DNA of 64,000 bases, from the NCBI GenBank assembly GCA_046563655.1, contig CM102284.1, positions 1,674,001 to 1,738,000 on the forward strand, read 5' to 3'. A program made the position numbers and the translations under genes. This document shows, in pieces, positions 13,944 through 59,906 of the stretch. The stretch comes from Yuukianura sp. NJ FZ-2021. Lineage: Eukaryota. The notes beneath the pieces are model-generated. The model saw only the letters and a list, made by a program, of their open reading frames with translations, did not search any database and was not told where the DNA came from. Each line of letters opens with the position of its first letter. Positions within the stretch are counted from its first letter, which is position 1.

Positions 13944-14632
13944 GAACAACTTTTCAGTATCTGATACGGTTGTGATATCTCCGTATGTTTAGTCCTCAGC
14001 TACCCCGCGACTCGTATTTGGGTCGCCAAAATTTCAAAAAAGTAAAAAAAAAAAAACTAACTCCCAATGTCTTTGCTAGAATTGTCGCTGAGCGTTCTGA
14101 ATTACAAACAATGCCAATTGATGGACGGTTCTCGGCTTTAAAAGCTTTGGTGAATTCAGTTATGGGTTTGATAGCTAATAGCTTTATAACTTACTAGGAG
14201 TGGAACAACCTGGTTATTTTAGATTTGGCTGAAAGTGGAAAGGTAACCTCAAACTGACAATATGACTGAAAGGCCGGAGTCGTTCAAGCAGAACAAAATT
14301 TTGAAAGCTAGTGGTTATGTTTTTGACTGCAGGAAATAAAATAATGATCAGCTTTTAACAAAAAGCACAATGGAACGATGATAGTTCCTTATGTTTCAAA
14401 ACCGGCAAAAATTGTCCCGTTGTCCAAACTTTCTGCCGAAATTGAATTTACGAAATAAAATTTATCTATAGAAGTATAAATAATAAGAATATCTTTCATA
14501 CTCAACAATAATTGATACTATTAATTTTAAAGTTTAACAAGTTGGGTATAATTAAGCGACTATGTTTACATGAACACAAAAGAAGTAATATGTTCAATGT
14601 TGAATTCTTTTAAAGATTTCATGTTGTAGATT

Positions 14633-39193: not shown

Positions 39194-39877
39194 CTAGTTG
39201 AGTCTGTTGAATCGTCGACCTCTCATTTGCATTTGATGCATCAGCTGAGTTCCACTGCTGACTCCAAGCAGTGTTTTGCAAACGGAGCACCGATGCTGAA
39301 TATCCGTGCACATTCTGGCAGCAGTTGAATTTGCTTTGCTCATCACAAAGAAGCCAACGAGAAAAACGATGAGAAAGACAGGCATGACAGCCAGTGGAAT
39401 AAATGTTTCTCCGATGAGGGTTAGCAGGATGAAGAAAACAATAAAGACAACTGCTGCCATTCCATAACAGGCATACACTTTCTGGGATACTCCTTGTCGG
39501 ATGTTCCGGTTCTCCACTTCTGTTAACTGAGTAACTGCCGTGTTCTTGCATGTGGGACAGACAACAATGACTGGATTCCGTCCATTTTGACTGATGGCGG
39601 CATTAACTGCCTGAGCAGCTAGTATAGATTCGCCTACACCGCCTGCTTGATTTGAGAATGGTATAGGTTGCATTTCCATTCCAAAGTTGTATGGCGGAAG
39701 AGCCATTTGATTCAATGGCATTTGGAACTCTCCAAAGTTGGATGATCGTAAGAAACCGGACTCCGAATGACTCGAAGCACTAGGACCGGTATAAGGTGGT
39801 GGTGGTTGATTGGTGATGCTATCAGTGAGTTCATGTTGACCTCTTGATGGACCCGCAATTTCGTTTTCGGTATCCAT
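39194..39877 (-). CDS. LITAF-domain protein, paralogue 1
   Basis: N-terminal PPPPY and LPPY motifs; VVCPTC...hydrophobic segment...DIQHRCSVCKTLLG. Probable 5'UTR exons at ~40262-40364 and from ~40541. Confidence 0.88.
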   Translation of the reverse strand: MDTENEIAGPSRGQHELTDSITNQPPPPYTGPSASSHSESGFLRSSNFGEFQMPLNQMALPPYNFGMEMQPIPFSNQAGGVGESILAAQAVNAAISQNGRNPVIVVCPTCKNTAVTQLTEVENRNIRQGVSQKVYACYGMAAVVFIVFFILLTLIGETFIPLAVMPVFLIVFLVGFFVMSKANSTAARMCTDIQHRCSVCKTLLGVSSGTQLMHQMQMRGRRFNRLN

Positions 39878-39942
39878 TCTACAAAAAAATATGTGAACAT
39901 TTACATCGAAGCTATCAATGAAGTGAAAAACACTGGTTTAAA

Positions 39943-40237
39943 TGCAGTATCGCGGCGCAGCATGGATTTGGCCGCCATTTTCTTTCTAGTCTAATTTGAG
40001 TAATGCTGAATCCGAATCTGAAAGAATTTCTTTTCCAGAAATGTACGGAAAGTATTTTTTTGAATTTTTAAAATTGACGTTTCCCCATAAGAAAGCATTA
40101 GGTTTTCGCTTCTATTTTCCTACGTTAGGTTAAAAAAGTCAGTTCCGGAGAAAAATTCTTTCAGATTCGGATTTCAGCATACTCAAATAAGTCTAGAAAA
40201 AAAAGGCTGCCAAATCCATGCTGCTGCCGATACTGCA
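39943..40237. mobile_element. Foldback MITE in the intron upstream of LITAF paralogue 1 CDS
   Basis: ~95-bp imperfect TIRs: TGCAGTATCG...GCAGCATGGATTTGGC...AATCCGAATCTGAAAGAATTT and AAATTCTTTCAGATTCGGATT...GCCAAATCCATGCTGC...CGATACTGCA. Confidence 0.8.
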
Positions 40238-41593
40238 ATTTTTCCAAAACACTTTCACTGACCTTAAGGTCCTTCCGTTTGGATGAAATTGGGACAATAA
40301 ACTCAATTGCTAATCATCCTCTGGATCTGGCTCTTGCTGAAATTTCTAACCATGGAGATGGAACTGAAAATATAAAAATACTTGAAGCAAAAGCAATCGG
40401 GGATGATAAATATGGATTTAAATAGAATGACTAAATAATTTCTGTTAAAATCATCATGAATTACTAATTAGTATTGGTAAATCTTTCCAATTAAACGCTT
40501 TTGTAAAAAGTACTACTGAAAATAATTAGTTTCAACTTACCAATCAATCTTTTGTATACCAGCCTTGGCACCGTCGCACCGTTGTGGTTCTGTCCGAATA
40601 ATCCCCGGAATTCGGAATGGACAAGTAACCTACAGAGGCAGAATCGGAGATCAAGGTCATTCAACTTATGAACAGAACAAACGTGAGACAACACTCTCTA
40701 TGAATGCTGAATGTTTTTGGTATAGGCAGATCTTAATACTTCTTACATACACAAACACCATTCGGTTGAAATGAATCGAAATCGGCTCCATTGTACCCAG
40801 CATGACTGGTCCATTTCTTGTGAATGTTGCGGAAATTGAAACAACGAAACATGATCGACCTTAAACTTGAGTACATCTCCAGACTAACTTTTATTCAAGC
40901 AGTATTTACTTAATTACTATGAATTGCAAATCATTCATTTAAATTTAATATTCACTAATAAGCACTAATATTCACTAAAATAGCCATTAAATATTCACTA
41001 GTACTAGAAATAAACATTTCATTAAAACAAGGAGACCATTTTTCTGAGCACTTTGTTCCGTTCCTTGGAAGCTCTTTGGATGGAAGTAATTACTACAAGT
41101 ATTTTTTCAAAGTAAAAGATAATTATTGTTACAATTATTGTCATATTTGGTTAGTGTAAAATGGTGAGGGAATCCGCACAATACCCTCCCCTTGCGCCCC
41201 CGCCGCCATGCCAGGCGACGTAATTATTATTACATTTGTTTGGCAAAACACTTTACGCCGACTGAGTTTTGTTTTAAAATAAGGTTATTTTACCACTAAA
41301 ATTATCGCAAGCACAGAAGTTATCATACAGGTACAATTGTTAATTAGTGTTTGAATTCGTTGTTAAATTTCATAGGGTTGTTAATGGCGCAACGTCTTGT
41401 TGTCCTGCGAGGTTATTACATGAAAGGATTATTATGGAAATGAAGGAGTCACAATAATGCTAAACTTTCAATAGATTAATAGGTAAGCGCTCTAACTAGG
41501 AATAAAATTTTATGGAAGACAAGCGAAATCTCACTAACTTTCCTAAAATCTGCTTTACCTTTCATACAACATTGTGACCTTTCACATTTTTAT

Positions 41594-42253
41594 TTAAAAC
41601 AAGCTGTGTTGGAATCCGTAGTTGAAACGGAAACGTGGCATCTCCTGAACTCCATTGCTGACTCCAAGGAGTGTCCGGCAGACAGAGCAGTGGTGCTGAA
41701 TATCCTTGCACATCGCCGCTTGCGCCGTTGCTGTTTTGCGCATGCCATAGTACCCCCAATACAGAACCAAAAGAAAGATGGGCAATATGAACAAAGGAGC
41801 GAAACTTTCACTGATGATGCTATCTCCAATGAAGAATACAAAGACGATAACAGCAAACCAACGAATCCTGTTCTCGGCATTTGACCATGTCTGAGTCATT
41901 GTAGTATTTTCAATTTCCGTAATCTGCGAGACTGTGGTGTTCATGCATTTTGGGCAGACGACAGTAACAGGATTCCTTCCGTTTTGGCTAATAACTGCTG
42001 CGGCAGCTTGGGCTGCAAGAATCGGATTGACACCTCCGTGACCTTGTTCTGATCCTGGTGGTGGATTGAACCCAACAGGATTTGGGTTGTATGGAGCCTG
42101 ATCCTGTTGCATCTGAAACTGGGGATTGTAAGGTTGCGGCTGCGCTGGTGGAGCTTCTGGGTTGTAATTGAATTGCCCTACACCAGGATACTGCGGAGGC
42201 TGCTGCTGATTTTCGTTGTCACCGACGGAATTTGAAGTTTTCTCGGGAATCAT
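41594..42253 (-). CDS. LITAF-domain protein, paralogue 2
   Basis: Starts MIPEK just after a TTAG acceptor; PPQY motif; CPKC...DIQHHCSVCRTLLG. Confidence 0.88.
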   Translation of the reverse strand: MIPEKTSNSVGDNENQQQPPQYPGVGQFNYNPEAPPAQPQPYNPQFQMQQDQAPYNPNPVGFNPPPGSEQGHGGVNPILAAQAAAAVISQNGRNPVTVVCPKCMNTTVSQITEIENTTMTQTWSNAENRIRWFAVIVFVFFIGDSIISESFAPLFILPIFLLVLYWGYYGMRKTATAQAAMCKDIQHHCSVCRTLLGVSNGVQEMPRFRFNYGFQHSLF

Positions 42254-42305
42254 GCTTTCTAAATGAAAAATACTATGTAAGTACACCGGAAACCGGATTT
42301 GAACC

Positions 42306-42455
42306 AATATTTGGCTGAAGTTGCAGTTTCATTCTGCAGTTCGATGTGGTGGGAGATGGATGTGTAGGTGGTGGAAAGTGGTGAAAGTTAGTTACATTAC
42401 ATCCACCACCCACCACATCTAATTGCAGAACGAAACTGCAATTTAGCCCAATATT
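42306..42455. mobile_element. Small palindromic MITE in the 5' intron of LITAF paralogue 2
   Basis: AATATTTGGCTGAAGTTGCAGTTTCATTCTGCAGTTCGATGTGGTGG pairs with CCACCACATCTAATTGCAGAACGAAACTGCAATTTAGCCCAATATT. It is absent from the equivalent intron of paralogue 3. Confidence 0.7.
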
Positions 42456-43789
42456 TTCACGAAACAAAAATTTACTGAATTTGAGTCCTAAATCTACGAA
42501 AGCCTTAAAAACCTAGGGAACTTAGGGTAAACTTACTGAGCAGTAGGAACATTCCTAGTGTGCATGAGTGGTGTCAAGGACGCGGTGTGTCCAATTGGGT
42601 CAATCCTGTGTATATTCTAGTAGGATCAATACTACCAATTAAATTTCAAACCACCCTACTAAAACGAAAATGGAATGCAAATGGTCGAATAGGGTAAATA
42701 CTCGGTAAAGAACACAAGAACTGTTCTGAAGATGAGATGGAATTTGCGAAAAACGGGACACATCTTATGCTGCTGCTGGTGGCGCTGGTCATTTCCATGT
42801 AACTACAGGGATTATTGATCTAGTAACCCTGATATACTCCGACCTTGATCTTTTCGGATGCTGCAATATATCGGCTTGCCGATACCACTCCATCTTTTTA
42901 ACTTGCGCACTCTGTAGGAGTTGATTTTTGGAGAAAGTGCAAAATCAAAAAATCTCCCTGTTTTCAAAATTTCATAAAAAGTTAAGGTCGGTTCAGACAC
43001 TACTTACAAGTGAATCGGAATCGGCTCCATCGTAGCCACCATGACTCGTCCATTTCGTCGGAATGTTGTGGAAATTGAAACAACGAAACATACTCGATCT
43101 TAAACTTGAGTACATCTCCACCTCGAGAGTAACTTTTATTAAAGCATGATTTACCTAATTACTATGAATTTCAAATTCCGTAACGCGTGCTAATTAAATG
43201 TGAACAGTATTTAGAAATAAAATAAACATTTCATTAAAAAGAAGCCACAAATTCTTAGCACTTTGTTCTTAAAGCTCTTTGGAAGTAAAGTACTTTTACA
43301 CATTAAACACCATCATTAACATTACATATTTGTTTGGTAAAGCACTTTAGGTTGATTATTTTTTTGAAAATAAAGTTACAAGTAAAGATCACAATCACAG
43401 CTCCATAAGGTATGATTGTCAAATATTTGAAACAAGTATGGTTAGATTTCATAGGGCCGTTACAGGCCATGCAACAACGCCTTGTTGCACTCCAAGTTTA
43501 CCTGGAAAGATATTATGTAAACGAAAATTCACAATAATGCTATCTAAGCCTAACTTTGATTTAATAATAACAGTACTTTAACTGCTTTCAAATCTACTAG
43601 AATTTAGATAATGGTAGTAAGGCAAGATGCATTCTGCTAAGCAGCCTAAGTTACGAGAATAAAATTGGTTCATAACCTTAGTTAGTGCAAATTCCGTTCT
43701 AGTTTCACCGATTCATAGAGGATAAGCGAAATCTCATTAACTTTGCTTAAATCTCATTTACCTTTCCTTTAGCGTTATGATCTTTGATT

Positions 43790-44452
43790 TTAAGAGCTGT
43801 GATAGTATCGACGGTTGCGACTTTGCATCTGCTGCATCATCTGAGCTCCACTGCTGACTCCAAGGAGTGCCTTACAGACAGAGCAGTGGTGCTGGATATC
43901 CTTGCACATCGCTGCTTGCATCGAAACCACTTTCCGCATGATACAGAAGCCCATTAGCAGAAACAGAAGAATGACGGGCATCACGAACAACGGAACGAAA
44001 CTTCCACTGATGAAGCTCACTGCAGTGAACAAGGCGATGAAGAGAACAGCAGTTCCACCAAAGAACATGTGTGCGATATTCGACGTTCCTTGTCTCACGG
44101 CAGTATTTTCAACTTCCGTAATTTGCGTGACAGTGGTGTTCTTGCATGTTGGGCACACAACAGTAACAGGGTTCCTTCCGTTTTGGCTAATGGCTGCTGT
44201 GACAGCTTGGGCTGCAAGAATGGATTCACTGACCCCTCCTTGACCTTGGGCTGCAGGATTGAATCCAACAGGATTTGGGTTGTATGGAGCCGCATTCTGT
44301 TGCATCTGAAACTGTGGATTGTAAGGCATCGGTTGCGGCTGTGCTGGTGGAGCCTGTGGATTGTAATTGAATTGCCCAGCACCAGGATATGGCGGAGGCG
44401 GATGCTGATTACCGTCGTCACTGGCGGTCATCGGAGTTTTCTCGGGATCCAT
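43790..44452 (-). CDS. LITAF-domain protein, paralogue 3
   Basis: MDPEK start; PPPPY motif; CPTC...DIQHHCSVCKALLG. Confidence 0.88.
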   Translation of the reverse strand: MDPEKTPMTASDDGNQHPPPPYPGAGQFNYNPQAPPAQPQPMPYNPQFQMQQNAAPYNPNPVGFNPAAQGQGGVSESILAAQAVTAAISQNGRNPVTVVCPTCKNTTVTQITEVENTAVRQGTSNIAHMFFGGTAVLFIALFTAVSFISGSFVPLFVMPVILLFLLMGFCIMRKVVSMQAAMCKDIQHHCSVCKALLGVSSGAQMMQQMQSRNRRYYHSS

Positions 44453-45427
44453 GTTAGCTAATAAAAAAAAATACTCATTAGTGTACTGCATATGAAACAA
44501 AGTTTTCATAAAACAAACATTTACTAGCGTATTGAATTTACTAAACTAGGTAAGGCAAGCAGGCAAGGGTAAACTTACTGATTGCTGTTTGTTGTGAATG
44601 TGAAAGAATACTGTCAAGAAAGATCAAGACGCGATGTTTTGTATTGGGTCAATCTTGTGTTTATGCAAGATCGATCAACAGTAAAACGAACCAAAGTTAA
44701 AACGAATTAGACTAATGAAATGCAATGATCGAATTGGATTAAGGATAAACTCGGAAAACAAGGCAACAAGGATCTTGCAGATGGAATTTGCGAAAAAACG
44801 GGACACGACACATCCTAGGAATTCCTAACCAATTATAGCCGAGGCGTTTTCCCTGGTATTACTGGTTGGTGCTGATAATTTCCTTATACCAATACCCTAA
44901 CATTTGCCTGTCTTTGTTCTTTCTTATAGCTGCTCCGTTTCCTTGTTTTTTTGCTTATTCGGTGGTTATGGTGACCTCGACCGCAACAAGTGGATTGAAG
45001 TAAGGAAAAACTTGCTCATTGCAACCTCTCACTTTCAAATGTTTCAAAATATTTATTTGGAGATTCTGCAAATATTCAAAAATATTTCATTGGAAATCTT
45101 TTAAGTATTTCGATACTTATCTTACATGTACCTGCCCAACCAATACTCAAGAAATCTTAATTCTTAATTAGCTAATACCAGAGTTACACCATTTCCTGCC
45201 AGTCAATTTAAATTTCAAACGCATTTGAAAGGAGTTAAAGCTGTTCCCAAATTTTTGAAAACTAAATCGTATGAAAAGACGACTAAATGGCACCCTGGTT
45301 TGTATAGCGGGCGTTATAATGAAACGGACTATACTTCTATTATAAGACTAAGGCATCCGCTAATTGTAAAGTGAAGGGTTTTCAAAAATATGCGCGTAAC
45401 ATACATTATCTTAACTTCCACTTGTAT

Positions 45428-45967
45428 CTAAAATAGGCCACTGCTTGGTTGCATATCTTGAAACGTTTTGACTCCGTAGTTTACTCCAAGGAGAGTCCGA
45501 CAGACTGAGCAGTGATGCTGAATGTCGTTGGCTAGCGGTGCCAGGCCTAGGAATATTTTTCTCATGAAGAAGTAGACGATCAGACCGATGAACCAAAACA
45601 GTGGGATAGCAAATAATGGAGAAAAACTATTGGCGATAATGGCCACAATGATGAAGAACACGACGACGATAACCAATATAATTACGAAGAAACGTTCAAA
45701 GGCTCCGTACTTCGCTTGGGTCTCCACAGTATTCTGAATGACTGTGACTTCCGTCATACCGACACTCCTGCAGTTCGGACAGACAACCGAAACGGGTTGA
45801 CGCCCATTTTGAGCGATTGCACCCGTTGCCAACTGAGCCGCCAAAATCGTTTCAGTGACATTTCCATTACCTGGATCCAGTTGTGTACTGAATCCAGTGG
45901 AAGTTCCTGGATATGGCGGCGGTGGGTCTGATTCGTCGGCAGTGGTGGAAGCCTTTGCCACATCCAT
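45428..45967 (-). CDS. LITAF-domain protein, paralogue 4
   Basis: PPPPY motif; CPNC...DIQHHCSVCRTLLG. Confidence 0.88.
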   Translation of the reverse strand: MDVAKASTTADESDPPPPYPGTSTGFSTQLDPGNGNVTETILAAQLATGAIAQNGRQPVSVVCPNCRSVGMTEVTVIQNTVETQAKYGAFERFFVIILVIVVVFFIIVAIIANSFSPLFAIPLFWFIGLIVYFFMRKIFLGLAPLANDIQHHCSVCRTLLGVNYGVKTFQDMQPSSGLF

Positions 45968-46467
45968 TTTCCTACTCAGAAAAAAAAAACAAAAAACAAA
46001 AACAAATTGTCAAATTTTCATGAAGTGTCAAGAATAAGGTAAACAAATGAAAGCTACCGTAACGGTACAAACAAATATCAATTGTTAAAGTCTCCTGATT
46101 ATAAAATATAAAATAATAACTTACCAGTTAACCGTTTCACTGTGAAAGTGTTTTTTAGTGTACGGTGGTTTCCAGTTGCTTTAAAATCCGATTAAAAAAC
46201 CCACCCCTCGTCACAACAACCACAAATTATGATAGCATGTGTTTTTGTTATAATCCATCCTCTCCTTCACTTGCGAATTGCGATTTGCGAATCGCAGATT
46301 AACACAAAAGAAGTGGGGTTGAAGTACGGCCACTGAGATGCCTGTACCCATTTGACTACAGTTAGGCTAGTCGTAATAAGTTTGTTTTTTATTGTTATTA
46401 ATAAATATTTTTATTGGTTGTTTTTTTTCAGTACTGGATGTAAAAAATATTTATTCTACTTTTTTTT

Positions 46468-46600
46468 CAGTGCTGGATGGGTAAAATAATTATTCCACTT
46501 ATATAAAATTGGGTGGAAGTGTCCATTTTATATCCGCTTTATCCAACCCCATTTCTTCCGGATAAAACCGGATGAAATATAGCATCCACTGGACGAAACC
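46468..46600. mobile_element. Degraded inverted copy of the element at 52361-52541
   Basis: CCATTTCTTCCGGATAAAACCGGATGAAATATA...ATCCACTGGA is the reverse complement of the core at ~52405-52450. Confidence 0.6.
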
Positions 46601-46750
46601 GAATATAAGTAACACAGCAAAGTTTCATTAACATTTTTTAAGTTAGACTAAATATGTATTGCACATGTAATTAACATTTGTGACATGCACTCAATTTACT
46701 AAATGTTTTTTGTACCACATACCATACAAACCGTAAGACCGTAACGGTCT

Positions 46751-46926
46751 CGTAGCAGGTGATATGGTCAGAAATATTTGGTCAGAAGTGAAATGATCAG
46801 AAGTGAAAAGGTCAGAATTCAAAAGATCTCAGGTTAGGTTTGGTTACGTTCCTTCCTTTTCTGACCTTTTTTTTCTGACCATTTCACTTTTGATCTTTTC
46901 ACTTTCTGACCAAATCACATGGAACC
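46751..46926. mobile_element. MULE/Foldback-like MITE with GGTCAGAAGTGAAA subrepeats
   Basis: Ends CGTAGCAGGT...ACATGGAACC, flanking duplication AACGGTCT, inverted arms made of ~15-bp repeats, and a central GGTTAGGTT. Confidence 0.8.
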
Positions 46927-47313
46927 AACGGTCTACCTTGACTTATTATAGTAATTAATTTTAAAGGTAATTTACTTATTTTAGTCAAAAGTCTAACAAG
47001 CTTGGCTTCCTGTACCAGAATTTGTTGTAATAAGAGCTTTGGAAAAAAAAAACATCTTTTTGTAAAGGTAATTTTGACTATGGTATTTGGTGCATAGCAA
47101 TAAAGTAAACTGAAAATCACAGTTTGCAGTCGTTTGACCTACAAATCGTTTGAATTGTTGTTGTCAATCAGCTTATGCTAATTTTCCTGTGGTTAGTTGT
47201 GAGTGAATAAGTAATGCAGAAGTGAACCATAAGTTTAATTAAAATCAATGCATCTGACGATGAACAGTTTTTAGTGTAATTTTCAAGTTCAGAAAGTAAA
47301 GAACATTTTCAAA

Positions 47314-48740
47314 ATGGCTGCTACTAACGGAGAACCAATTCGATTCAACTGCTGGCGCCCTGAGGAAACTGGGCGTCTTACGCTGAAATTCAATTTAGGC
47401 GCCTTTTCTCATCCAGCATACGGATCTTCGGCAGGAAATTTGTGCGGGGAGTACGAACTGTTCAATACTGCTGGGTATGTTCTAAAAACTTAGATTAGAA
47501 CAAATTTATACTAAAATCCTTGATTTTCTTAATTCTGCATTGCATCTCAAACGGATTACACAAAATTCCGAATCTACATAGCTTTAGCTAATAAATGTAT
47601 TAAATAGCAAACTTTAAATCAGCATTTTAATCATCATCCAATTTCATAATTATTTTTTTCAGAACTTACAGAATTTCAAACTACTTTGAACTGAGCGCCG
47701 CCGAACAACGCAGCATTCTTGAAGACACGAAAGTGCGTCTGCGCGGGTATGCCGAAACTCTGGACGAAGACGACTACGTCCATCTATGCAATGAAAGCAT
47801 TCTTAGTGCTGCCGCTTGTTTCCCGCGTCTTGATGCCAGAACTCCAAAATTTGAAATGGGCATAGACGGAATCCCATTTGCATTTCTGTCAGAAGATTCA
47901 TTTGAACCCGAATTCCTGGAAGATGTGCCTCTAATTTACCGAAAAGTGTATGAAGAACCGGGAAAACCCAAGTATGCCAAGTACCGTAACCAGCATTGGA
48001 CGACATACTTGAATCGCAGGGAAGCGGAAGTTTATGAGGACAAATCTCGATATATAGCGGAAGTAGTTGAGTCAATGCCAGAAGTGGAAACGGTTCTCAA
48101 GGCAATGGAGTCTATTGGGAACAAGGCCAAGGCTCAACTTCCTCAAGGCCTTCCAAAATCAATCAAATTTGTAGTTGGCGCCATTTTTCATAAAGGAGAA
48201 CAAGTTATTTTGACCAATCAGAAAGCTGGCGGAGAATTCAGTTTAAGCGACAAAAGAATGAAAAATGTTAGAGCAAGCAACTCGGCACTTGAAGTGCTTT
48301 TGGAAATGTATCTTCTGGTACAAGAAATTTCTGTTCCGGTTCGTATCAGAACGACTTTGGTATTTCAAATGTTAGTGACATGCGTAAAAGAATTTGGAGT
48401 TTTAAGTGACGAAATTCTCGGTATTCAGAGAGATGCTAAGGATGATGAGTTTGACAAAAACTCGATTCTGCGCAGAGTTCGAAAAGGAGTTTCGGTTGAC
48501 CAGAGTTTTACTAAGGGGCTAAAGGCTCTTCATGATATAATTTCTGACATGCGCAAAATTATGAATATTCTAATGAAATCGTATCCGGATGAACAGGGAG
48601 TTGCACAGTTCGTGCAAAGTGTGAAGGATTTTTGCGATGGACTTAGTATCGGTGTTGTACTTTTTGCAGAACGAAAACTAAAACTGCAAGGTGACGCGAA
48701 AATTGGAATTTTTCCGGTATCGAATACCGATACTGAGTGA
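47314..48740 (+). CDS. Uncharacterised 412-aa protein (two exons)
   Basis: ATG at 47314. Exon 1 ends at 47474 (GG|GTATGT) and exon 2 starts at 47663 (TTTCAG|A), in frame with the 335-aa ORF. No family recognised. Confidence 0.8.
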
Positions 48741-49189
48741 CGGTACCGAATACCGATACTGAGTCACGATACCGGTTTTGAACAGAAAAATTTCATGCAT
48801 CAACCGTTTTTGACAGTAGCTTAGTTAATTTTGGTTGACATTTTTTGAAAAATTTATTTTCCGAATAAAATTCATGGTTGCTTTGTGTTAATTTTTAGAA
48901 GTTTTTTAATTTCTCCAAGCTTCTATTTAACTGCAATTTAGTCACAAGGTTAACCTTCGGATTCTTTTCACTTTCAACCTACGTTTGAACCTTGGAAATT
49001 TCAATTCCTTTCATCTCCCGATTGCGCAAACTCTGACGTCATAATAGTCGGTATAAGTCTATTGTTTTACCTTAGTTTCCTATTGTTATCCGAACTTGTT
49101 TAATTGGTGAGGTAGGTGCCAATTTCAACTTCATTTCTACTCTGATTGCTGATCACTTCAACCGAGGAGTTGGGCATATCCTGCGCACA

Positions 49190-50484
49190 ATGAAGTTCCT
49201 AATTACCATTTCCATGTGCCTCTGCGCACTGAACATAGCCTCGGCGGAAAAAGACAAGTTAGAAAAGATATGTAAGGATAAGGCAGAAGTGCCAATAGTA
49301 GACGACCTGGTGAAAGACGGATTCAAGAATGGTTGGTATATTTCTATGGTCAAGAAGGCAGACCATGCCAAGAAGCTGCTTACCAACAACATCCCAGAAG
49401 ACAAACGGAAGTGGAATGAGAAGATCTGCTATGAGGGCAATGCAAACAGTCCTTTGGGAGACCGTAAGTAAAATAGTAGTTCACATTCAGCCATATCAGG
49501 TAAGTATACAGGGTGTGGCACGTAAAAGTGTACACTTCTAATTAGTTGCTATTGGTTACAAGTTCTGGATATCCGACTTTCCCATGGAAGGTTGGGAGTT
49601 GGACCATGAATTTTTACTTTCCTTGATCTAAACCATGATATTACATTCATAAAACTTTAATTTTTCCAACATACCAAGTCAAATTCCGAAAAATAAACAA
49701 GTTGTTTATTGTTCAAGTGTATACTTTTACGTGCCACACCCTGTACATACCTTAATTATACCAATAATACCATAACCTTATATAAATATAACTAAATTAT
49801 ATTTTAATATCATTGTATTTATATCGTGTAGTCGATACAGTTGGAATCTGCAAGTTCAACCGAACGTCGTACATGACCTGTGTCATAGTTGGGACTCCAA
49901 CAAAGACTTCAGCTGGCAATTCAGCAGGCGGACTCGGTGTTGCGGACTTACAAGGTAATATCAAGGTTGTAAAATCCCGCTTCCTACCTCAACTTAACAA
50001 AGGTTCTACATTTTCCATTAGGTTACGGAGACACATGGGTTACCAAGTCAGACAACCAGACGTACGTCGTTTTCGTAGGATGTGTGACAAACAAATATCC
50101 ATTTTGGGAGGTTATGTCCACAGTACCCGAATTGGAAGAAAGCGTTCAGGAAGAAATTTTTGTTCACTTGGAGGAAATGGGTAAAACGGAGTATATTACT
50201 GAATATTAGCAGAATTTTTTTGTAGCTACTCCAAATTTTACAGCAGGGAACTTCAAATTTGAATGTAGTTGCGCCATAATTTGTATATTATTCATAAATA
50301 TAGTGGATTAATATTGGAATGCATAGGTTTTAAGAGGGAGGATGCGGCTGAAAAGGGTAAGGACGTACAAGGAACATACTTGAAGGAGAAAGAGTGCGGC
50401 AAAGACGAGGGCGGTACGAAGAAAAAGAAAACGGTGGGAAAACCACCCGTTGCCCAGACGGATGTTGCGGGTGGTCTTGTGTAA
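49190..50484 (+). CDS. Divergent lipocalin-like secreted protein, copy A
   Basis: Four exons (~49190-49463, 49832-49953, 50022-50180, 50326-50484). Signal peptide, C...PIV...GWYIS, WVTKSDNQTYVVFVGC, WEVMSTVPEL...LEEMGF and a terminal Cys follow the lipocalin SCR1-3 order. Confidence 0.7.
49509..49743. mobile_element. Tc1/mariner-type MITE in intron 1 of lipocalin-like copy A
   Basis: 29-bp TIRs CAGGGTGTGGCACGTAAAAGTGTACACTT and AAGTGTATACTTTTACGTGCCACACCCTG (one mismatch), with TA flanks. Confidence 0.9.
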
Positions 50485-51642
50485 CAACAAATTCAAAAAA
50501 AAAAACATCACTGCAGTAATTCGACAATTAAAGTTAACTGGTTTTAAATACCAAAACACCTTCGTACAGCAGTTGATTGACACTATTCTTATTAATTTTG
50601 AAACAAAACGTGATGCAAAAATAAACAAACTCGATGTTCAAAAAATCTGGAAACGTTGATTAAGTTTTTGTATAGTGTTATTTAGTTAAAATAGTACACA
50701 AGTTTCGTTTAGTCTGGTCATATTACCGTACTCATGCAAAACAACTGTTTCGTTTTGATTGAATCGAATTACAAAATTTTTGGAGCAAATTCCCTTCATA
50801 AAAATCGTCAAAAACTTAGTTACATGTGCCAAATTAATTTTTCCCACTGAAGTATTTTTAACGTTAAGAATTTTGTAATTATTTCGAAACCAGTTTTTTC
50901 AGCTAGTGAGATTTCTAGAACCAACTCACAATCATAGATTGTCAGTAGAAGCAAAATATGCATTCTGCAAGGCAAGGTATGCACGGCAAAAAAAAAAATC
51001 GAAAAAAAAAAGTAGAAGCAAAAATAAGAAAAAAAAATATACAAAAAATGGCGGTTGTCAAAAGTAAAACAACTTCATTCAACTGCCGACTTTCATTAAC
51101 AATTAAGTTAAAGTTTTAACTGCATTCAGGCAAAAATGTCTTGCTTTGTGAATAAAACTGCAAGGTGATACAAAACTTGAAGTTGTTTTCTGTACCGAAT
51201 ACCGAAACTCATTAGCGATACCGATTTTGAACAGCAAAATTTCATGTAGCATCAGTTTTTTAACTGTAATTTACGATTTGTTAATTTTGGTTGATATTTT
51301 TTTAAAAAAGCTATTTTCTGAATAAATTACATATGGTTGTATATTGTTTTAATTTTTAGAAATTTTTAACTACTCCACGCTTTTAGCTATAAATTTAGTT
51401 ACTGTGTTAACCTTCGAATTGTTTTCACTTTCAACCTACGTATGAAACCTTGGAAATTTCAATTCCTTTCATCTCCCGATTGCGCTAACTCTGACGTCAT
51501 ATTAGTCGGTATAAGTCTATTGTTTTACCTTAGTTTGCCATTGTTATCCGAACTTGTTTAGTTGGTGAAGTAGTTTCCAATTTCGATTTCTACTCTGGTT
51601 GCTGATCACTTCAATCGAGGAATTGGGCATATCCTGCGTACA

Positions 51643-53440
51643 ATGAAGCTCCTAATTACCGTTTCCATCTGCCTCTGCGCAGTGACCCTGGTGGCCTCGG
51701 CGAAAGAGAAAAACAAATTAGAAAAGATCTGCAAAGATAAGGCGGAAGTGCCGGTAGACGACGATGTGCTGAAAGAGGGATTTAAGGCGGGTATTTACAT
51801 TTCGATGGTCAAGAAGGCGGACTCTGCGGGCCTAGCTGCCAAAAACCCACCAGAAGACAAACGCAAGTGGAATGAAAAGATTTGCTTTGACGTCACTGCA
51901 GATGGTCCATTGGGGGAACGTAAGTAGAATTGCCCACATAAAAACTTCACATACATGCATGAATTCAACCTGCATTGAATGATAAACCAATTTAACACAA
52001 ATTGAATACATAGCCCAAAGTAACTTACGTTGCAGAGATACACTAGTGTAACCTACAGTGGGAGTTATACCATACCAGATACATGCAATACAATCGAGAT
52101 ACATACGACACATACACGCACCAATATGTAGCATGTTGAATACACATACCAATATCACAATATGCATATATTATATACATTATATACAAAACAAACATCA
52201 TTGACAAGAAACAACATATGGAAAGTATATCCTGCCCATGTACAGATACTGCTACCATTCATTTTACATAGTACATGAAAACGTATATAATACAAACCTA
52301 CACATGATCCACGTTGTTCAAACATAAATAACTCATATCACATAAATATACATACGTATTCAGTGTTGCTGGATATCCACTTTTTTGACATTTCGTCCAC
52401 TGGATATCCAGTGGATAATATATTTCATCCGGTTTTATCCTGAAGAAATGGATGGATAAAATGGATTTAATGGATACTTCCGGATACTTCCACCTAATTT
52501 GAAGTAGATGGTAGAAACGTTTTATCCATCCAGCAACACTGTGCGTATTAATACCGATTACGAAGCAAATCATACCCTTATACAAAACTAAATCACATTT
52601 TTAATACCATTGCATGTATTTTGTGTAGTCCACACAGTTGGAGTTTGCAAATTCAACCGAACGTCGTACCTGAGCTGTGTTATAGTAGGACCAGACAGCA
52701 GAGGTCAGCTCAAAACTGTAAAATACCCCGCTTGTTACAACTTAAAACAGGAACTATCTTTTCCCAATAGGTTCCGGAGACAAATGGGTTACCAAGTCAG
52801 ACAACCAAACGTACGCGGTTTTCATAGGATGTGTGTCAAATAAAACTCCGTTTTGGCAGGTGATGTCCACGGTACCAGAATTGGAAGAAGGCACTGAGGA
52901 AGAAATTTTGGTTCACTTGGAGGGAATGGGTAATAGATATTACAGTAAACTTTCTCAAATTGTACCAATCCTTTTTTCTCGCTCAAACACCGTAAAACGC
53001 AGATTTTGGAGAGAGATTTTTGAGATAATTGTATTTCACCACGTGTTGGACGGACCACCGAACGCCTCAAGATTAAAGTTACTTAAAGTTGAGTTCCATC
53101 CAAAAACTGAAGGTTTTACTGTGTTTCTGCGAGAAAAGAGGATCAATTTAAGAAAGTGTACCGCATGTTACTGAATTTTATCACGTTTTCTTTTCTTTCG
53201 ACTTTAAATTCTACGACAAAGACCAAGGAATGTAGCTGTATCATGATTTATGCGTCATAAATATACGGTATTTAGTAATATTTGGTATGCATAGGGTTTA
53301 AGAGGGCGGATGCTGCTGAAAAGGGTGAGGACATACGAGGGACATTAATGAAGGAGAAAGACTGCGGCAAAGACGATGGCGGTGTTAATAAGAAAAAACC
53401 GGCTACTCCCGTGGGGGATCTTACAGATGGTCTTGTGTAA
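51643..53440 (+). CDS. Divergent lipocalin-like secreted protein, copy B
   Basis: Tandem duplicate of 49190-50484 with the same four-exon layout (to ~51919, 52629-52702, 52770-52928, 53295-53440). Confidence 0.7.
52361..52541. mobile_element. MITE with 14-bp TIRs and GGATA subrepeats in intron 1 of lipocalin-like copy B
   Basis: TIRs CAGTGTTGCTGGAT and ATCCAGCAACACTG; a related copy lies at ~46468-46600. Confidence 0.75.
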
Positions 53441-54330
53441 CACCAAATTCCGAAAACAAGCATTATTGCAGTAGTAACTCGACAATATTCGAATTACTGC
53501 AAAAAATTACTTGAAAACTCTGATAATTAGAGTTAACAATCAGAGGTAAAATAAAGACAAACTCAATTGCTCAAAAAAATTGGGCACTTTAAATTTTTGC
53601 ATTTGGTATTTATTTTTTATGAAATACAAATTTTCTTTTTTAGCATTATTTCTGCACACATCTAGCGTTTTTTTTCGTTTTTATAAAAAATGTTTGATTG
53701 AAAAGATTAGCTTAGATTAATTTTTTTTTTGCGAAAATTTCCGAAACAACTCCGGAAAAATTCCTCCATAAAAATGGTCCTATCTCCCTCGAAGAGCAAG
53801 TGAAATTTGCTCACCGAAAAATTCCTGAATTTTACCAACTGGCCGACAGAATTAAAACAAAATCAATGAAACGTGAATTTCAAATTTTTGAAAATATAAA
53901 AATTTTTGAAGTAATCTAACAATTAAAAATTTTTGCACTTAAAAGCTGAAGGATAAACACAGCCGAGAAAAATATGGAATGGAAATATTTGCCGCAAACA
54001 TTTGACAAAATTGTTTTATTGTTCAAAATTAAAATTAACTTGCCCTTAAGCTAATTACAATAAAGTTAATCACAAACTTAATACTTCATAATTGTAAAAT
54101 ACGTGGCAGGGTGTTCGTAAATGTGCCAAACTCAAACGTATTTTTCCCGCCACCGTATTTGAATTTAACAGCAATATGTCTAGACAAACCTCATGGCGAG
54201 TGTGACACAATGTTTAAAGAAAAATAGCTCTGAATTTCTCCAAAATCAAAGCGACACTCCAGCAGCCAATTTTTAGAATTGAATGTGGCGGGAAAAAGCA
54301 ATTGCTTGTGGAATACACCGTAGCACCTTA

Positions 54331-54870
54331 CTACGTTAGCATGCCAATTTTCTGATGAGCTCCACTGCTTACTCCCAGTAGTTTGTTACACATTGAGCAA
54401 TGGTGTCTCACATCCTTGTACTTCTCAAGTGACCTTGACCTTGACTCTGCCGACATTCGTTTGAACCGAATACAAAATGGAACAAGTAGTACAGGTATGA
54501 TGACGAATGGCAAAAGGCTTTCAGAAAAAGCAGAAATTATGAAGAACACTAAAAACAGGAACACCGACACCGCCATAAGCAACACAACCTTGTTGCATGA
54601 CATTTTATCTTCGTCTACATTGTATATGTTAACAGTTCTGGTCAACATGATGGCTCTGCAAAATGGACAAACGACAGTCACTGGATGTTGGCCATTTTGG
54701 GCAATTGCGGTATTTACTGTCTGTGCTGCAACTATCGCTTCACTCAAACTTCCCGCTGTCACTTGTGCATTGTTAAACATGACGTTCAGTGGAACTGATA
54801 CTCCGATAGGATCTTCCAGTGGACCAGGATATGGTGGGAGATTTGAAACATCGATGTTATGTGCTTCCAT
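54331..54870 (-). CDS. LITAF-domain protein, paralogue 5
   Basis: LPPY motif; AIVAAQTVNTAIAQNGQHPVTVVCPFC...DVRHHCSMCNKLLG. Confidence 0.85.
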   Translation of the reverse strand: MEAHNIDVSNLPPYPGPLEDPIGVSVPLNVMFNNAQVTAGSLSEAIVAAQTVNTAIAQNGQHPVTVVCPFCRAIMLTRTVNIYNVDEDKMSCNKVVLLMAVSVFLFLVFFIISAFSESLLPFVIIPVLLVPFCIRFKRMSAESRSRSLEKYKDVRHHCSMCNKLLGVSSGAHQKIGMLT

Positions 54871-56012: not shown

Positions 56013-57844
56013 ATGGAAACTCATGTAAAATTCGCCAATGGCCAAAAACTGCCACTTCTTGGTTTTGGAACGGCCTTCGTGAGTGCACAACATTTTGAAA
56101 CAATTTGGAAAACTTCTTTTATTTTCAATTTTGTGCATATTTTTGGAATTTTGGTTTTAGCCTCCAGACGACACATCTAAACTTGAGGCAGCCTTAAATT
56201 CTGCTCTGAGTCAAGGTTACCGCCATTTTGACACGGCCTATCACTACAGGACAGAAAAAACACTCGGAAAAGTTTTCGCGGAATGGATTTCGGCGGGAAA
56301 ATTAGCACGGGAAGAACTATTTGTTACTACCAAGGTATGAACTAGGCATTAATGGTTGGAGAGTAGATCCGCAGTCTGTTTTTCTTTTAGTGCGAGTTAG
56401 GTTATCAAATCAGGACACAGTGCACGCTGTTGAAGGTGAGGGTGCCGTGCACTGTGTCCTGATTTGATAACCTAACTAAAAGAACTAAAAAGAAAAACAG
56501 ACTGCGGATCTACTCTCCAACCGCATTAATTCCTAACGTACTACTCAAATTCGCCTCGTTTAACCTTTGGTCAAATGGAATACGCATGACCTCTGGTAAC
56601 CTTGAACGAATGATGTAATACGCATGACTCCTCGTGACATTGGATGAGTATTGGAGTCTACGCATAATACACATGACTCTCGTGACCTTTTGACCTCACC
56701 TAACAAAGTGTTTATTCTATCTGACAGTTTATGATTTTTGACCATAGCTACCAGCGATTGGCATGGACGAGAATCTGGTTGAACATTTTCTGAACAAATC
56801 GCTTGAAGCGCTGCAGCTGGAGTTCGTTGACCTCTACCTCATTCACTGGCCAGTTGGATTCAAGTATATTGACGACAACACTTTGTTTCCAATGACAGAA
56901 GATGGAAAATCGGTGGATTTCAACCTCAACTCTGACTTCATTTCCGTGTGGAAGAAAATGGAAGGTCAAGTGAAAGCGGGAAAAGCAAAAGCCATTGGGA
57001 TTTCAAATTTTAACGAATCTCAAATTGAACGGCTTTTGGAAAAAGCGGAAATCCTGCCGGCAAATCTTCAAGTGGAAATAACTGTATACTTTCAACAAAA
57101 ACCTTTGAGACAACTTTGTCAAAAGCATGGCATCACAGTAACTGCATATTCACCACTTGGGAGTCCAGGACGCGGTGAAAAGTATGAATTCAAAAAAAAA
57201 GCTCAAATTTTCAATTTCTCAAAATTTTCAAAATTCTAATATAGAAAAAAAAATCTGTTCTTGCAGGCAAGGCTACTCTAATCCAAATCTTCTTGAAGAT
57301 CATGTGTTATGTTCAATTGCTGAAGGAAAAGGAAAAAGTTCAGCACAAATTGCTCTACAGTTTTTAACTCAACAAGGAATTGCCGTTATTCCAAAAAGCA
57401 GCAACACACAACGAATAGTTCAAAACTCAGATGTAAAATCACTTACTTTTTTTTCTTCAAATGCCTTTTCAAAATTTTAGACTCTTGTTTGTTACAGATT
57501 TTTGATATTGCGTTAACCTCTGAAGAAATGCAACAACTGGAGAACTTGGACAAGGGAGAGGCCGGTCGAAAATTTATCACGGCGGTGATTCCTGGGTAAG
57601 CTGAAAAGCAACAATTAAGTTAAAGTTTTAACTCGATGAGCCAAGAACGTAGTCCGTTTTGAAGCCTAAGACAACAACCAGAAAACTATTATTTCGCACC
57701 GTATCAAAATTGCACTGTTAAATAAATATATGAATAATTCTTATGAATATAATAATATAATAAAGAATAAATATAATAATAATTCTTTTGTTTGGAAATT
57801 TCAGTGCTGCAACTGCAAACCATCCCGAACGCCCGTTCCACTGA
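56013..57844 (+). CDS. Aldo-keto reductase (AKR1-like)
   Basis: Six exons: PLLGFGT, GYRHFDTAYHY, REELFVTTK, LQLEFVDLYLIHWP, KAIGISNFN, AYSPLGSP, IPKSS, ending HPERPFH*. The catalytic D/Y/K/H residues are present. Confidence 0.95.
56343..56535. mobile_element. Palindromic MITE in an AKR intron
   Basis: GGTTGGAGAGTAGATCCGCAGTCTGTTTTTCTTTT...AGTTAGGTTATCAAATCAGGACACAGTGCACG is mirrored as CGTGCACTGTGTCCTGATTTGATAACCTAACT...AAAAGAAAAACAGACTGCGGATCTACTCTCCAACC. Confidence 0.85.
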
Positions 57845-57932: not shown

Positions 57933-59906
57933 CTACAAACTCGACAACTCGGTGTCGTGCCAGAAGATTTGCTCGGCAGGCTTCAGAAATCTGATAAATA
58001 GAACAATAGAATTCAAATTAGATGTGCTGATGTGCATTAAAGCGTAAAAATTCATTGCTTTTCGTATTGGGAGCCTTACGTCAGCAACGCCACAAAGTTC
58101 CAAATAGTCCAATCGAGGCAGGAGAGAAAACAAAATGGCAGAAGACTCAGAAAATGTGTTCAACGGTGAGTCTGCAGCAGTCGTAATCACAAACATTCTG
58201 AGGCCTGTTGAGCAAAATATAATTTCAAAACTAAATAAATATCTCCTTGTAGCTTAAATAGATGAAGGAAATACCAAACTTTACTTTTAGTACTTCTAAA
58301 AAAGTATTCATCAATACTTATTGATTCATGTTAGATGTTACAAACTTTACCTAAGAAGGTTCTTGACGGCTTCTTGAAATACTGAAACAAAGCCAAGTTG
58401 ACGTCTACTTCTGACTGAAACTTAAGGCGGACAGTCAGTTCCGAAAATGTATTTCCTTCCCTGAAAATTTCTTCCAAACATCTTGGCTCGTTTACAGTTG
58501 CATCCAGGATTTTAAGATTCGGGAAAAGCATTTTCCAGTTATCACCGACGTTGTAGGATTCTACAGTCAAGTTGACTACTTTAGAGAATTCCGCCCCTGA
58601 ATTAGAATAGAAGATGTGACGGAAGTCGACTGATTCAGTTAGTGATGTGGAGGTGAGGTGTACCTCCTTAAGAACTGGAAAATCCTGTGACGAAATGTTC
58701 ATACTTTTCATTGGAAAGGCAACTCTGGGGCGTTGGGGTGGCAACAATCCTTGCCAACCAGCTACACCACCAGGAGGTAAATCATAGTCCAAGTAAAGTA
58801 CTTCCAAGCGTCGCGTTGAAGGAAGGTTTAGAAGTCCAGCCGACAATAGTACTTGTAAGTCACTGGACCAATTCAGACTAAGCGTCTGTAGTTGTGCACA
58901 GTTAGTAATAAACTTCTCCAAATGTTCAAAATGCGTTGGAGTTGGATTGGAGTTGCGTCTGCTGTACATGATATCGACACTCAAATCTCGTATATTTGAA
59001 CGTTGATGTTGACACAACTTTTCCCAGAATCGGATTCCCTTTGCAGAAGGATAGTAGCTTAGATCCAATGAAACACTTCGAATGTTCTTTAGCAGTTCTA
59101 GGAATTTTAGAAAACATGGCAGGTTGTCACTGTCATCAACTTTGAGGGTAAACGAGTCCAAACAATTCTCCGTCTTTGTAAGAATAAATTCCAAGAAGCC
59201 CAGAGAAATGGTGGAAAGACAAAAGTCCACTTCTATTTTGTGAAGCTTGGGAAGTGTGACTATACCCTTGGTCGGTGGAAAGAAAAAAAGGTGGCTCATT
59301 TCGTTCAAAAAATCATCAGTCCCACTCTCAAGGTGGATTGTTCTTGGATTGTTAGCTTGAGAGATCACGAAGACTCGTAGATTGGGCATACGGCCGAGTA
59401 TGTAAGAAATATTGTCGTAATTATCTTCCGGAAGATGTACTTCAAGTACAAAAATGGAGTCTCCATATACATCTGCAATATGCCGATTAACACTTGATCC
59501 CTGATAGCCGGTTGAGATGAAGAGTGAGATGGCAGACCATGGCAAGTTTTGCTTGTCAGGAAATGCAGTCATCACGGTGGATGGATATTTGTAGAATCTG
59601 TCGGAAGTGACCTTGTTAAAGCGATTTCGGCAAGAATCCCCAGCTGCTTCATAGAATCGCTTTGACACGAGACGACAAATATTCAGCACATCCGGCACTG
59701 GTAAGTAGCTAAAGCACTCACGAAGGAGCTGTAATTCAAAAGCATAAAAAATGAAGACAGAGTGGTTGCACAAATGAGGCAAGAACGTTTAACTATCCGG
59801 TCAATTCTAGTAAAGTATAATTAATCAACTGTTGAGTTTCAGTTACCTCATTTGGCAGATGATTCATTCCAACTTGGTGTGTGAGAACTGCAGAGTTCAT
59901 TGCCAT
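57933..59906 (-). CDS. F-box / leucine-rich-repeat (RNI-like) protein
   Basis: Three exons (59906-59847, 59728-58351, 58204-57933). The spliced F-box reads HLPNE|LLRECFSYLPVPDVLNICRLVSKRFYEAA, followed by degenerate LRRs (MPNLRVFVI, LPKLHKIEV, FPNLKILD, LPRLDYLEL). Confidence 0.9.

Follow-up and report, generated by a model that had tools for sequence, protein, structure and literature searches.

Five genes on the minus strand of the 64,000-nt window (the whole stretch of DNA that was analysed), at positions 39194–54870, very probably encode members of a LITAF subfamily whose helical hairpin is doubled. All five genes are intact, with stop-free reading frames and products of 179–227 aa, which bears out the preliminary description of a five-paralogue cluster in this interval. 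The fuller reading, according to which the proteins form a distinct long-hairpin LITAF subfamily that carries a zinc ribbon, passes the membrane twice and recruits ubiquitin ligases, is favoured with some reserve. The coordinates of all five coding sequences, listed here with the other features, include the stop codons.

39194..39877, minus strand: coding sequence of paralogue 1, 227 aa, with PPPY at 26, LPPY at 60, CPTC at 107 and HRCSVC at 195; PF10601 score 21.7 bits (cut-off 23.8)
39296..39547, minus strand: spacer of paralogue 1, 84 residues between the knuckles, with a hydrophobic hairpin of 23 + 23 residues
41594..42253, minus strand: coding sequence of paralogue 2, 219 aa, with PPQY at 19, CPKC at 100 and HHCSVC at 187; spacer 83 residues; 22.3 bits
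43790..44452, minus strand: coding sequence of paralogue 3, 220 aa, starting MDPEK; PF10601 score 30.2 bits; folded with AlphaFold2
43937..44068, minus strand: hydrophobic run of paralogue 3, residues 129–172, 44 uncharged residues
45428..45967, minus strand: coding sequence of paralogue 4, 179 aa, with PPPY at 16, CPNC at 63 and HHCSVC at 151; spacer 84 residues; 26.6 bits
54331..54870, minus strand: coding sequence of paralogue 5, 179 aa, with LPPY at 11, CPFC at 68 and HHCSMC at 156; spacer 84 residues; 30.3 bits
40769..44806, no strand assigned: tandem unit of ~2.2 kb in two copies, 40769–42761 and 43008–44806, with 68–85% nucleotide identity in self-blastn

An upstream in-frame ATG at 44509 appears a less likely start for paralogue 3, because a pyrimidine tract and an AG separate it from the downstream ATG, and it is with the downstream methionine that the starts of the remaining paralogues align. 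An intron in the 5'-UTR is presumed. The two copies of the tandem unit found by self-blastn contain paralogues 2 and 3 together with their flanks. The number of copies in the window is exactly five according to tblastn, and two further matches are at chance level (E 0.25–0.40). Unrelated plus-strand genes stand between paralogue 5 and the other four paralogues.

Each of the five proteins contains a CxxC knuckle followed, 83–84 residues downstream, by an HxCxxC knuckle. The spacers between them are 84, 83, 84, 84 and 84 residues long in paralogues 1–5, so that the approximately 84 residues claimed for paralogue 1 are its measured length. The second knuckle has the form HxCS[VM]C in all five, in agreement with the HxCSxC proposed earlier, and the IL/IVAAQ...QNGxxPVxVVC block is likewise present in every paralogue, with VISQNG instead of AISQNG in paralogue 2. 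None of the 29 aligned rows of the wider family departs from the ligands C, C, H, C and C, and their sharing by the five paralogues is far beyond chance. We infer that the conserved cysteine ligands bind zinc.

The assignment to the LITAF family, another point of the preliminary description, holds when the paralogues are compared with the zf-LITAF-like profile PF10601, which matches all five with E values of 5e-7 to 2.3e-4. Recognition by Pfam is marginal: three paralogues score above the gathering score of 23.8 bits (30.2, 26.6 and 30.3) and two just under it (21.7 and 22.3). Profile positions 2–68 are stretched across 105–106 residues of the paralogues, and the insert exceeds what the profile of 70 positions allows by ~38–39 residues. 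In the wider family, 28 of 29 rows match PF10601 at E <= 0.01, the best at 4.5e-12. The non-canonical spacing of 83–84 residues is a variant architecture and no argument against homology.

The insert contains about 44 hydrophobic residues divided by a short turn. In paralogue 1, for which ~40 hydrophobic residues broken by a short turn had been described, there are two uncharged runs of 23 residues each, separated by a single Glu within G-E-T-F-I-P. The other four paralogues have uncharged runs of 12–22 and 17–22 residues, or one run of 44 residues; the clean run of just 12 belongs to the first arm of paralogue 2, which has an Asp inside. Kyte–Doolittle means over 19 residues reach 2.3–3.9 in all five paralogues, and two non-overlapping 17-residue windows with a mean above 1.6 are present in 28 of the 29 family rows. 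The flanks of the hairpin contain 0.16 and 0.20 Lys and Arg per residue, whereas the turn contains 0.04. This distribution agrees with a hairpin that spans the membrane and keeps its two ends cytosolic.

AlphaFold2 models of paralogues 3 and 5, with a domain pLDDT of ~90, consist of a zinc ribbon bearing an antiparallel hairpin of two helices of 30–33 residues each, with additional N- and C-terminal helices; paired beta-hairpins flank the helices on either side in both models. The order of elements in paralogue 3 is a helix at 74–91, two strands, helices at 117–149 and 153–182, two strands and a helix at 202–219, with pLDDT of 83–97 per 10-residue block from residue 71 onward; paralogue 5 has the same order and a mean pLDDT of 84. 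The uncharged residues 129–172 of paralogue 3 make up the membrane-proximal halves of the two long model helices. The two-helix hairpin put forward in the preliminary description is predicted with high confidence, with ~20 hydrophobic residues per arm, in models that take no account of a bilayer. In VIA-align, residues ~115–183 fit generic antiparallel helical hairpins with an rmsd of 1.4–2.6 Å over 62–74 residues (top ten rows), and the wide search returned generic helical hairpins only, its top Z of 8.6 being a value that long helices in a common arrangement can reach. A sequence search of the PDB gave no significant match (best E 0.36) and Foldseek gave none at E <= 0.001, so that neither search of the PDB provided a solved LITAF structure for comparison. 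An amphipathic N-terminal helix was considered and rejected: its hydrophobic moment of 0.09–0.21 is not above that of shuffles.

Among the five paralogues, the mean pairwise identity is 0.73 and 0.77 in the knuckle blocks and 0.25–0.34 in the polar part, both hydrophobic arms and the linker. The insert had been called the most divergent part of the proteins. The arms do have low identity; equally divergent, however, are the C tail, at 0.19, and the N-terminal region, at 0.38, and the turn (0.47) is better kept. The tip of the hairpin has the conserved motif S-F-x-P-L-x-x-x-P. The knuckle blocks, with pN of 0.14–0.18 and pS of 0.62–0.78, are under purifying selection. The estimates are no evidence for positive selection in the insert: synonymous sites are saturated in most paralogue pairs by the Nei–Gojobori method, and in the sole usable pair, paralogues 2 and 3, pS climbs along with pN in the first arm. 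The ratios of 0.83 and 1.25 for the arms of this pair are based on 18–19 codons with pS raised too, and could reflect patchy gene conversion. The suggestion of a diversifying membrane segment is not upheld by this test, in which the pairs are saturated or inflated in pS, nor by the conservation of the tip.

The long-insert form has also been described as lineage-specific, a view that its distribution weakens. A HMMER profile search of 1.84 billion representatives returned only 22 relatives, each a sequence cluster, and the spacer is 80–99 residues long in 25 of 25 relatives retrieved. None of the 22 has a functional name, and one cluster includes a "hypothetical protein" of Folsomia candida. 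By the sequences found, the long-hairpin subfamily is wider than this genome, and only the expansion of paralogues 2, 3 and 4 looks local. A metagenome pattern scan with the family alignment gave 286 pattern matches and one confirmed locus. Word-index protein searches, which found 1, 3 and 1 proteins, made no additions to the HMMER scan. In the ESM Atlas, the nearest cluster is a nematode LITAF-like one of 179 aa, with scores of 0.89 (paralogue 3) and 0.90 (P0004); it is a lead only. The long-hairpin proteins, hypothetical in public records, would gain a name.

The motifs of the N-terminal region suggest how such proteins might act. Strict PPxY motifs are present in paralogues 1–4 (PPPY, PPQY, PPPY and PPPY), and the aligned position in paralogue 5 is LPPY, so that the motif thought to be common to all five is strict in four. 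In clade A, to which the genes of the window belong, 11 of 14 rows have PPxY. The PSAP/PTAP motif, which serves TSG101 binding in LITAF, is found in none of the five paralogues, unlike in canonical LITAF/CDIP1. Binding of ITCH/NEDD4 ligases by LITAF via PPXY is described in passages of PMC5095921. The putative role as ubiquitin-ligase adaptors derives from the PPxY motifs and from published LITAF biology; for the membrane-damage sensors that the preliminary description also suggested, the analysis gave no support.

In the proposed architecture, the CxxC and HxCxxC knuckles would assemble, as in canonical LITAF, into a zinc ribbon at the cytosolic surface of the membrane, and closure of the ribbon would lock the hydrophobic segment into the membrane. 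This segment would be doubled, ~44 residues against 22 in human LITAF, and form two antiparallel helices joined by a turn of 3–6 residues. Each arm, with ~20 hydrophobic residues and a length of ~30 Å, would span the bilayer, and the hairpin would thereby pass the membrane twice and leave the two ends in the cytosol; they should lie on the same side because the zinc ribbon requires it. The tiny conserved tip S-F-x-P-L-x-x-x-P would be on the luminal or outer side, and ~10–12 polar helical residues per arm would hold the zinc ribbon at a distance from the membrane. The disordered proline-rich N-terminus, with its PPxY (LPPY in paralogue 5), would, by analogy with LITAF and CDIP1, bring NEDD4-family ubiquitin ligases to membranes, endosomal or not, where cargo is to be sorted. 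The chances that the proteins are PPxY-dependent ligase adaptors appear evenly balanced.

It is possible, although improbable, that the doubled segment turned a monotopic anchor into a two-pass one and provided soil arthropods, and possibly other invertebrates, with LITAF-derived sensors or receptors, the tandem paralogues differing in membrane or ligand specificity. The tip S-F-x-P-L-x-x-x-P of such a sensor would reach the luminal or outer leaflet, and an event on the far side (a lipid state, a pore-forming toxin or a partner protein) would be coupled to PPxY-dependent recruitment of ubiquitin ligases in the cytosol.

The long hairpin of a LITAF subfamily might instead be a deeper monotopic wedge that does not cross the bilayer, like the hairpins of caveolin, reticulon, oleosin and lipid-droplet proteins. 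It would increase the generation of curvature or permit residence on a monolayer such as that of lipid droplets, and the conserved prolines of its tip would act as a proline knot. Canonical LITAF is monotopic (passages of PMC5095921 and PMC5142333), and a passage of PMC8353527 reports that it supports membranes of high curvature. The tips of the five paralogues, of 3–6 residues, are weakly polar and proline-rich, with P-[LIF]-x-x-x-P conserved in 10 of 14 clade-A rows. However, arms of ~20 hydrophobic residues suffice to span a bilayer, the turns of distant members carry several charges that are hard to bury (EEE, KDNN, AEDK), and the depletion of the turn in Lys and Arg relative to the flanks is as in a translocated loop. 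A wedge is considered rather unlikely, and a truly membrane-spanning hairpin is held to be moderately probable.

Two other explanations concern the function of the genes. Conservation of the tip motif while the arms vary, and the arrangement of the genes as a tandem multigene cluster, would agree with an oligomer that forms a channel or pore-like bundle, or with a tip that binds a ligand or toxin from outside; the specificity would then differ between paralogues. Mammalian LITAF and CDIP1 are host receptors of the Bacillus cereus haemolysin BL, according to passages of PMC9558359. The arms are nearly purely hydrophobic, without a polar face to line a pore, and the exposed tip would be just 3–6 residues long, which makes this explanation very unlikely. 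The genes would be redundant decaying duplicates without distinct function, and the long insert a tolerated expansion of the membrane anchor, if the identity of 19–38% to which arms, linker and tails fall were a sign of decay. This is extremely unlikely, given five intact frames, invariant ligand residues, pN far under pS in the knuckle blocks, a spacer whose length is tightly kept at 83–84 residues here and 80–99 in distant relatives, and a fold predicted with confidence for two paralogues.

Among monotopic membrane anchors locked by a zinc ribbon, LITAF is the founding example. The variant of this anchor with a doubled hydrophobic segment is undescribed in the full-text literature searched, in which no paper was found to report a LITAF domain whose hydrophobic region is doubled. 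The doubled segment probably lets the protein cross the membrane and return rather than dip into it, a topology inferred from models and sequence. The practical weight of the finding is modest for now; a natural subfamily with exactly doubled hydrophobic length, fixed spacer and conserved tip provides a comparison that could reveal what determines whether such anchors dip into the membrane or cross it.

The paralogues share with canonical LITAF/CDIP1 the knuckles that flank a hydrophobic membrane segment, the proline-rich N-terminus with PPxY (strict in four of five), the match to PF10601 (above the gathering score in three of five), an Asp three residues ahead of the His and a Leu-Gly following the last Cys. 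Passages of PMC5095921 and PMC5142333 give 22 residues for the hydrophobic region of human LITAF, and in a canonical moth LITAF, CPSC at 15–18 and HYCPNC from 64 are separated by a spacer of 45 residues (a passage of PMC13113599). By contrast, the paralogues have 83–84 residues in place of a canonical spacer of ~45, ~44 hydrophobic residues in two helices in place of 22, and a predicted two-pass instead of monotopic topology. Unlike canonical LITAF/CDIP1, they are also predicted to have an extra conserved helix (the ILAAQ...QNG block) before the first knuckle and a helix after the last. The best match in the viral model library BFVD is the LITAF domain-containing protein Q5YFC9 of Singapore grouper iridovirus (rank 1, probability 0.91, weak E of 0.11), with a TM-score of 0.43 on the target and an rmsd of 10.6 Å over 107 columns; unlike the paralogues, the iridovirus protein is 104 residues long, and its hydrophobic segment is short.

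NDFIP1 and NDFIP2 are small membrane proteins whose cytosolic PPxY motifs bring WW-domain NEDD4-family ligases to endomembranes; they have three transmembrane helices and lack a zinc ribbon. These PY-motif adaptors provide a working model for the function of the paralogues, the likeness being one of described features. Caveolin, reticulon-homology proteins and oleosin, with its proline knot, have two hydrophobic arms, a proline-containing turn and termini that face the same side of the membrane; their hairpins do not cross the bilayer and are without a zinc ribbon clamp. By contrast, a zinc ribbon clamp is predicted for the paralogues, and crossing of the bilayer is judged more likely.

The five minus-strand LITAF-domain genes of the window (paralogues 1–5, p1–p5, numbered by rising coordinate) are long frames located between 38 and 56 kb by stop-to-stop reading. 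The spacer between the first CxxC knuckle and the HxCxxC knuckle is 84, 83, 84, 84, and 84 residues long in p1–p5, which bears out the long insert of about 84 residues attributed to p1 in the preliminary description. The ILAAQ/IVAAQ...QNGxxPVxVVC block and HxCS[VM]C are common to all five proteins, as had also been described. A PPxY motif had been ascribed to all of them and is present in its strict form in four; in p5 the aligned residues read LPPY, and p1 carries an extra LPPY besides its strict motif. PSAP or PTAP occurs in none of the five.

LITAF-domain genes of the window (lengths from the first aligned methionine; stop codon included in coordinates)
39194–39877, minus strand, p1, 227 amino acids
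41594–42253, minus strand, p2, 219 amino acids
43790–44452, minus strand, p3, 220 amino acids
45428–45967, minus strand, p4, 179 amino acids
54331–54870, minus strand, p5, 179 amino acids

An AG-terminated pyrimidine-rich tract lies 1–5 nucleotides 5′ of the ATG in p1–p4, and upstream in-frame stops occur within about 25 codons in all five genes, which suggests a 5′-UTR intron followed by one coding exon. A second in-frame ATG of p3 is located upstream at 44509; the start was placed at 44452 because the aligned methionine starts the other paralogues and a pyrimidine tract with AG separates the two ATGs. In the window, tblastn recovered the five genes and no further copy; two other matches were at chance level (E 0.25–0.40). 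Genes p2 and p3 are each carried by one copy of a tandem unit about 2.2 kb long (40769–42761 versus 43008–44806). The adjacent aldo-keto reductase, F-box, Kazal, and C2H2 zinc-finger genes are unrelated to the cluster. Overall, the window resembles animal DNA, probably from an arthropod.

Features on the high-side flank of the LITAF cluster
56748–57480, plus strand, aldo-keto reductase exons
58331–59788, minus strand, F-box protein gene
62526–63176, plus strand, C2H2 zinc-finger exon

A second tandem duplication, located between p4 and p5 (48743–50528 and 51192–53486, plus strand, 73–81% nucleotide identity), matched no Pfam family; each copy begins with a small signal-peptide-like ORF (49190–49471; 51646–51927). 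For the stop-to-stop ORF at 47631–48740 (plus strand, 369 amino acids), nothing better than a Terpene_syn_C_2 match below threshold was obtained (E 0.0022; 18.2 bits versus a cut-off of 23.7). A repetitive Gln/Pro/Thr/Ser-rich ORF with QQPLTSQ-like repeats (18926–20086, plus strand, 386 amino acids) sits at the GC maximum of the window, 0.43, and matched no Pfam family. The minus-strand segments 6914–7360, 9107–9517, and 13026–13988 comprise Kazal-type inhibitor domain exons (E 1e-7 for the first) and two secreted-looking cysteine-rich ORFs.

The assignment of the five proteins to the LITAF domain stands in that zf-LITAF-like (PF10601) is the best Pfam family for each, with 21.7, 22.3, 30.2, 26.6, and 30.3 bits for p1–p5; however, p1 and p2 fall under the cut-off of 23.8 bits. 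Single-stretch matches cover profile positions 2–68 over 105–106 residues, about 38–39 beyond the profile. The best stretch of p4 links the first knuckle with the first hydrophobic arm of the spacer, and that of p3 links the second arm with the second knuckle; therefore, either arm can replace the single canonical hydrophobic region. In the 29-row alignment of the wider family, 28 rows match PF10601 at E ≤ 0.01, residues G, C, C, H, C, C, and G are invariant, and R, D, and L nearly so.

The spacer contains uncharged runs of 23 and 23 residues in p1, 20 and 22 in p4, 22 and 17 in p5, and 12 and 22 in p2; that of p3 has one run of 44 residues, not two. The zinc ribbon would require both ends of the spacer to lie on one membrane side, and arms of about 20 hydrophobic residues would each be long enough for about 30 Å. 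Two separate 17-residue windows with a Kyte-Doolittle mean above 1.6 are present in 28 of the 29 rows, the Lys and Arg content per residue is 0.16 and 0.20 in the 10-residue flanks versus 0.04 in the turn, and the turn is strongly charged in some distant members. Together with the arm length, these features favour a two-pass membrane hairpin. A serious rival is a deep monotopic hairpin that stays inside the membrane, because all five paralogues have short tips of weak polarity.

The AlphaFold2 model of p3, calculated from the 29-row alignment, has a mean pLDDT of 79.4, with 83–97 per 10-residue block from residue 71 on. It contains, in order, helix 74–91, strands 97–99 and 106–114, helices 117–149 and 153–182, strands 185–190 and 196–200, and helix 202–219; the model of p5 (mean pLDDT 84.2) has the same order. 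The hydrophobic run 129–172 of p3 corresponds to the 21 and 20 residues nearest the turn in the two hairpin helices; the rest of each helix (10–12 residues) is polar. In VIA-align (48,161 chains), residues ~115–183 fit many unrelated antiparallel helical hairpins (top Z 8.6), a result that says no more than that the model places the two helices in a straight hairpin. Foldseek found no match in the PDB at E ≤ 0.001; the first match in a viral model library was an iridovirus LITAF-domain protein, with a probability of 0.91 but an E of 0.11 and an rmsd of 10.6 Å.

Confidently predicted subfamily-specific helices (p3 and p5)
44180–44233, minus strand, helix ahead of the first knuckle (p3 residues 74–91)
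43796–43849, minus strand, helix past the last knuckle (p3 residues 202–219)

The N-terminal helix is the most conserved block; it was computed as not amphipathic.

A HMMER search of 1.84 billion representatives, mostly from microbial and metagenomic libraries, with a profile of the five paralogues and one further match yielded 22 relatives at E ≤ 0.001, 12 at ≤ 1e-10, and 5 at ≤ 1e-30. No short-spacer LITAF reached the threshold in this search, and the spacer measures 80–99 residues in every one of the 25 retrieved relatives. The 20 representatives looked up come from metagenome or run assemblies and are nameless or "hypothetical protein", except that the cluster of relative P0018 includes a Folsomia candida "hypothetical protein". 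ESM Atlas flags a nematode LITAF-like cluster (179 amino acids). The maximum-likelihood tree, midpoint-rooted, separates the rows into two groups (support 90/97). Of the 14 rows in the window's group, 11 have PPxY, as does 1 of the 15 in the other. Paralogues p1–p5 group with relatives P0001, P0002, P0003, and P0005 in a set of nine with poor resolution (86/79), within which p2–p4 make up a clade with support (96/89). Thus, only some of the five genes look like products of a local expansion, and the lineage-specific subfamily proposed earlier is weakened, as the long spacer also occurs elsewhere, including the Folsomia candida cluster.

Mean pairwise identity among p1–p5
N-terminal region, 0.38
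First knuckle block, 0.73
Polar part of spacer, 0.28
First hydrophobic arm, 0.29
Turn, 0.47
Second hydrophobic arm, 0.34
Linker, 0.25
Second knuckle block, 0.77
C tail, 0.19

The insert, described as the most divergent part, has low identity in its arms, polar part, and linker, but the C tail is lower and the turn is better kept. In the knuckle blocks, pN of 0.14–0.18 versus pS of 0.62–0.78 indicates purifying selection. Diversifying selection on the insert was not upheld: synonymous sites are saturated in most paralogue pairs, and the low identity in the first arm of p2/p3 (4/19 identical residues versus 22/26 in the first block) comes with raised pS (0.46 versus 0.20). Given the raised pS, patchy homogenisation may account for the p2/p3 difference in place of selection. 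A motif at the hairpin tip, P-[LIF]-x-x-x-P, occupies insert position 50–52 in 10/14 rows of the window's group but in 0/15 others; therefore, the insert is not uniformly free to vary. A longer form, S-[FWY]-x-P-[LIF]-x-x-x-P, at insert positions 50–52 of the paralogues and relatives P0001–P0007, has the same distribution (10/14 versus 0/15).

LITAF is reported to bind ITCH/NEDD4 ligases via PPXY and TSG101 via PSAP, with a role in multivesicular-body sorting (PMC5095921). LITAF and CDIP1 have been reported as membrane-curvature proteins (PMC8353527) and as host receptors of haemolysin BL (PMC9558359). By analogy, the window proteins are most likely PPxY-bearing membrane adaptors. Human LITAF is described as monotopic and zinc-binding, with both ends cytosolic (PMC5095921, PMC5142333); in a canonical moth LITAF, CPSC is at 15–18 and HYCPNC starts at 64 (PMC13113599). 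A 2010 paper lists the SMART LITAF model only as having a motif inserted in the membrane and no transmembrane segment (PMC2912341). The full-text literature searched does not describe any LITAF domain whose hydrophobic segment is doubled, and we rate the long-hairpin LITAF as a variant, undescribed there, of an already known kind. The hydrophobic region of canonical LITAF is 22 residues long (PMC5095921, PMC5142333), whereas the hydrophobic segment of the window paralogues is doubled.
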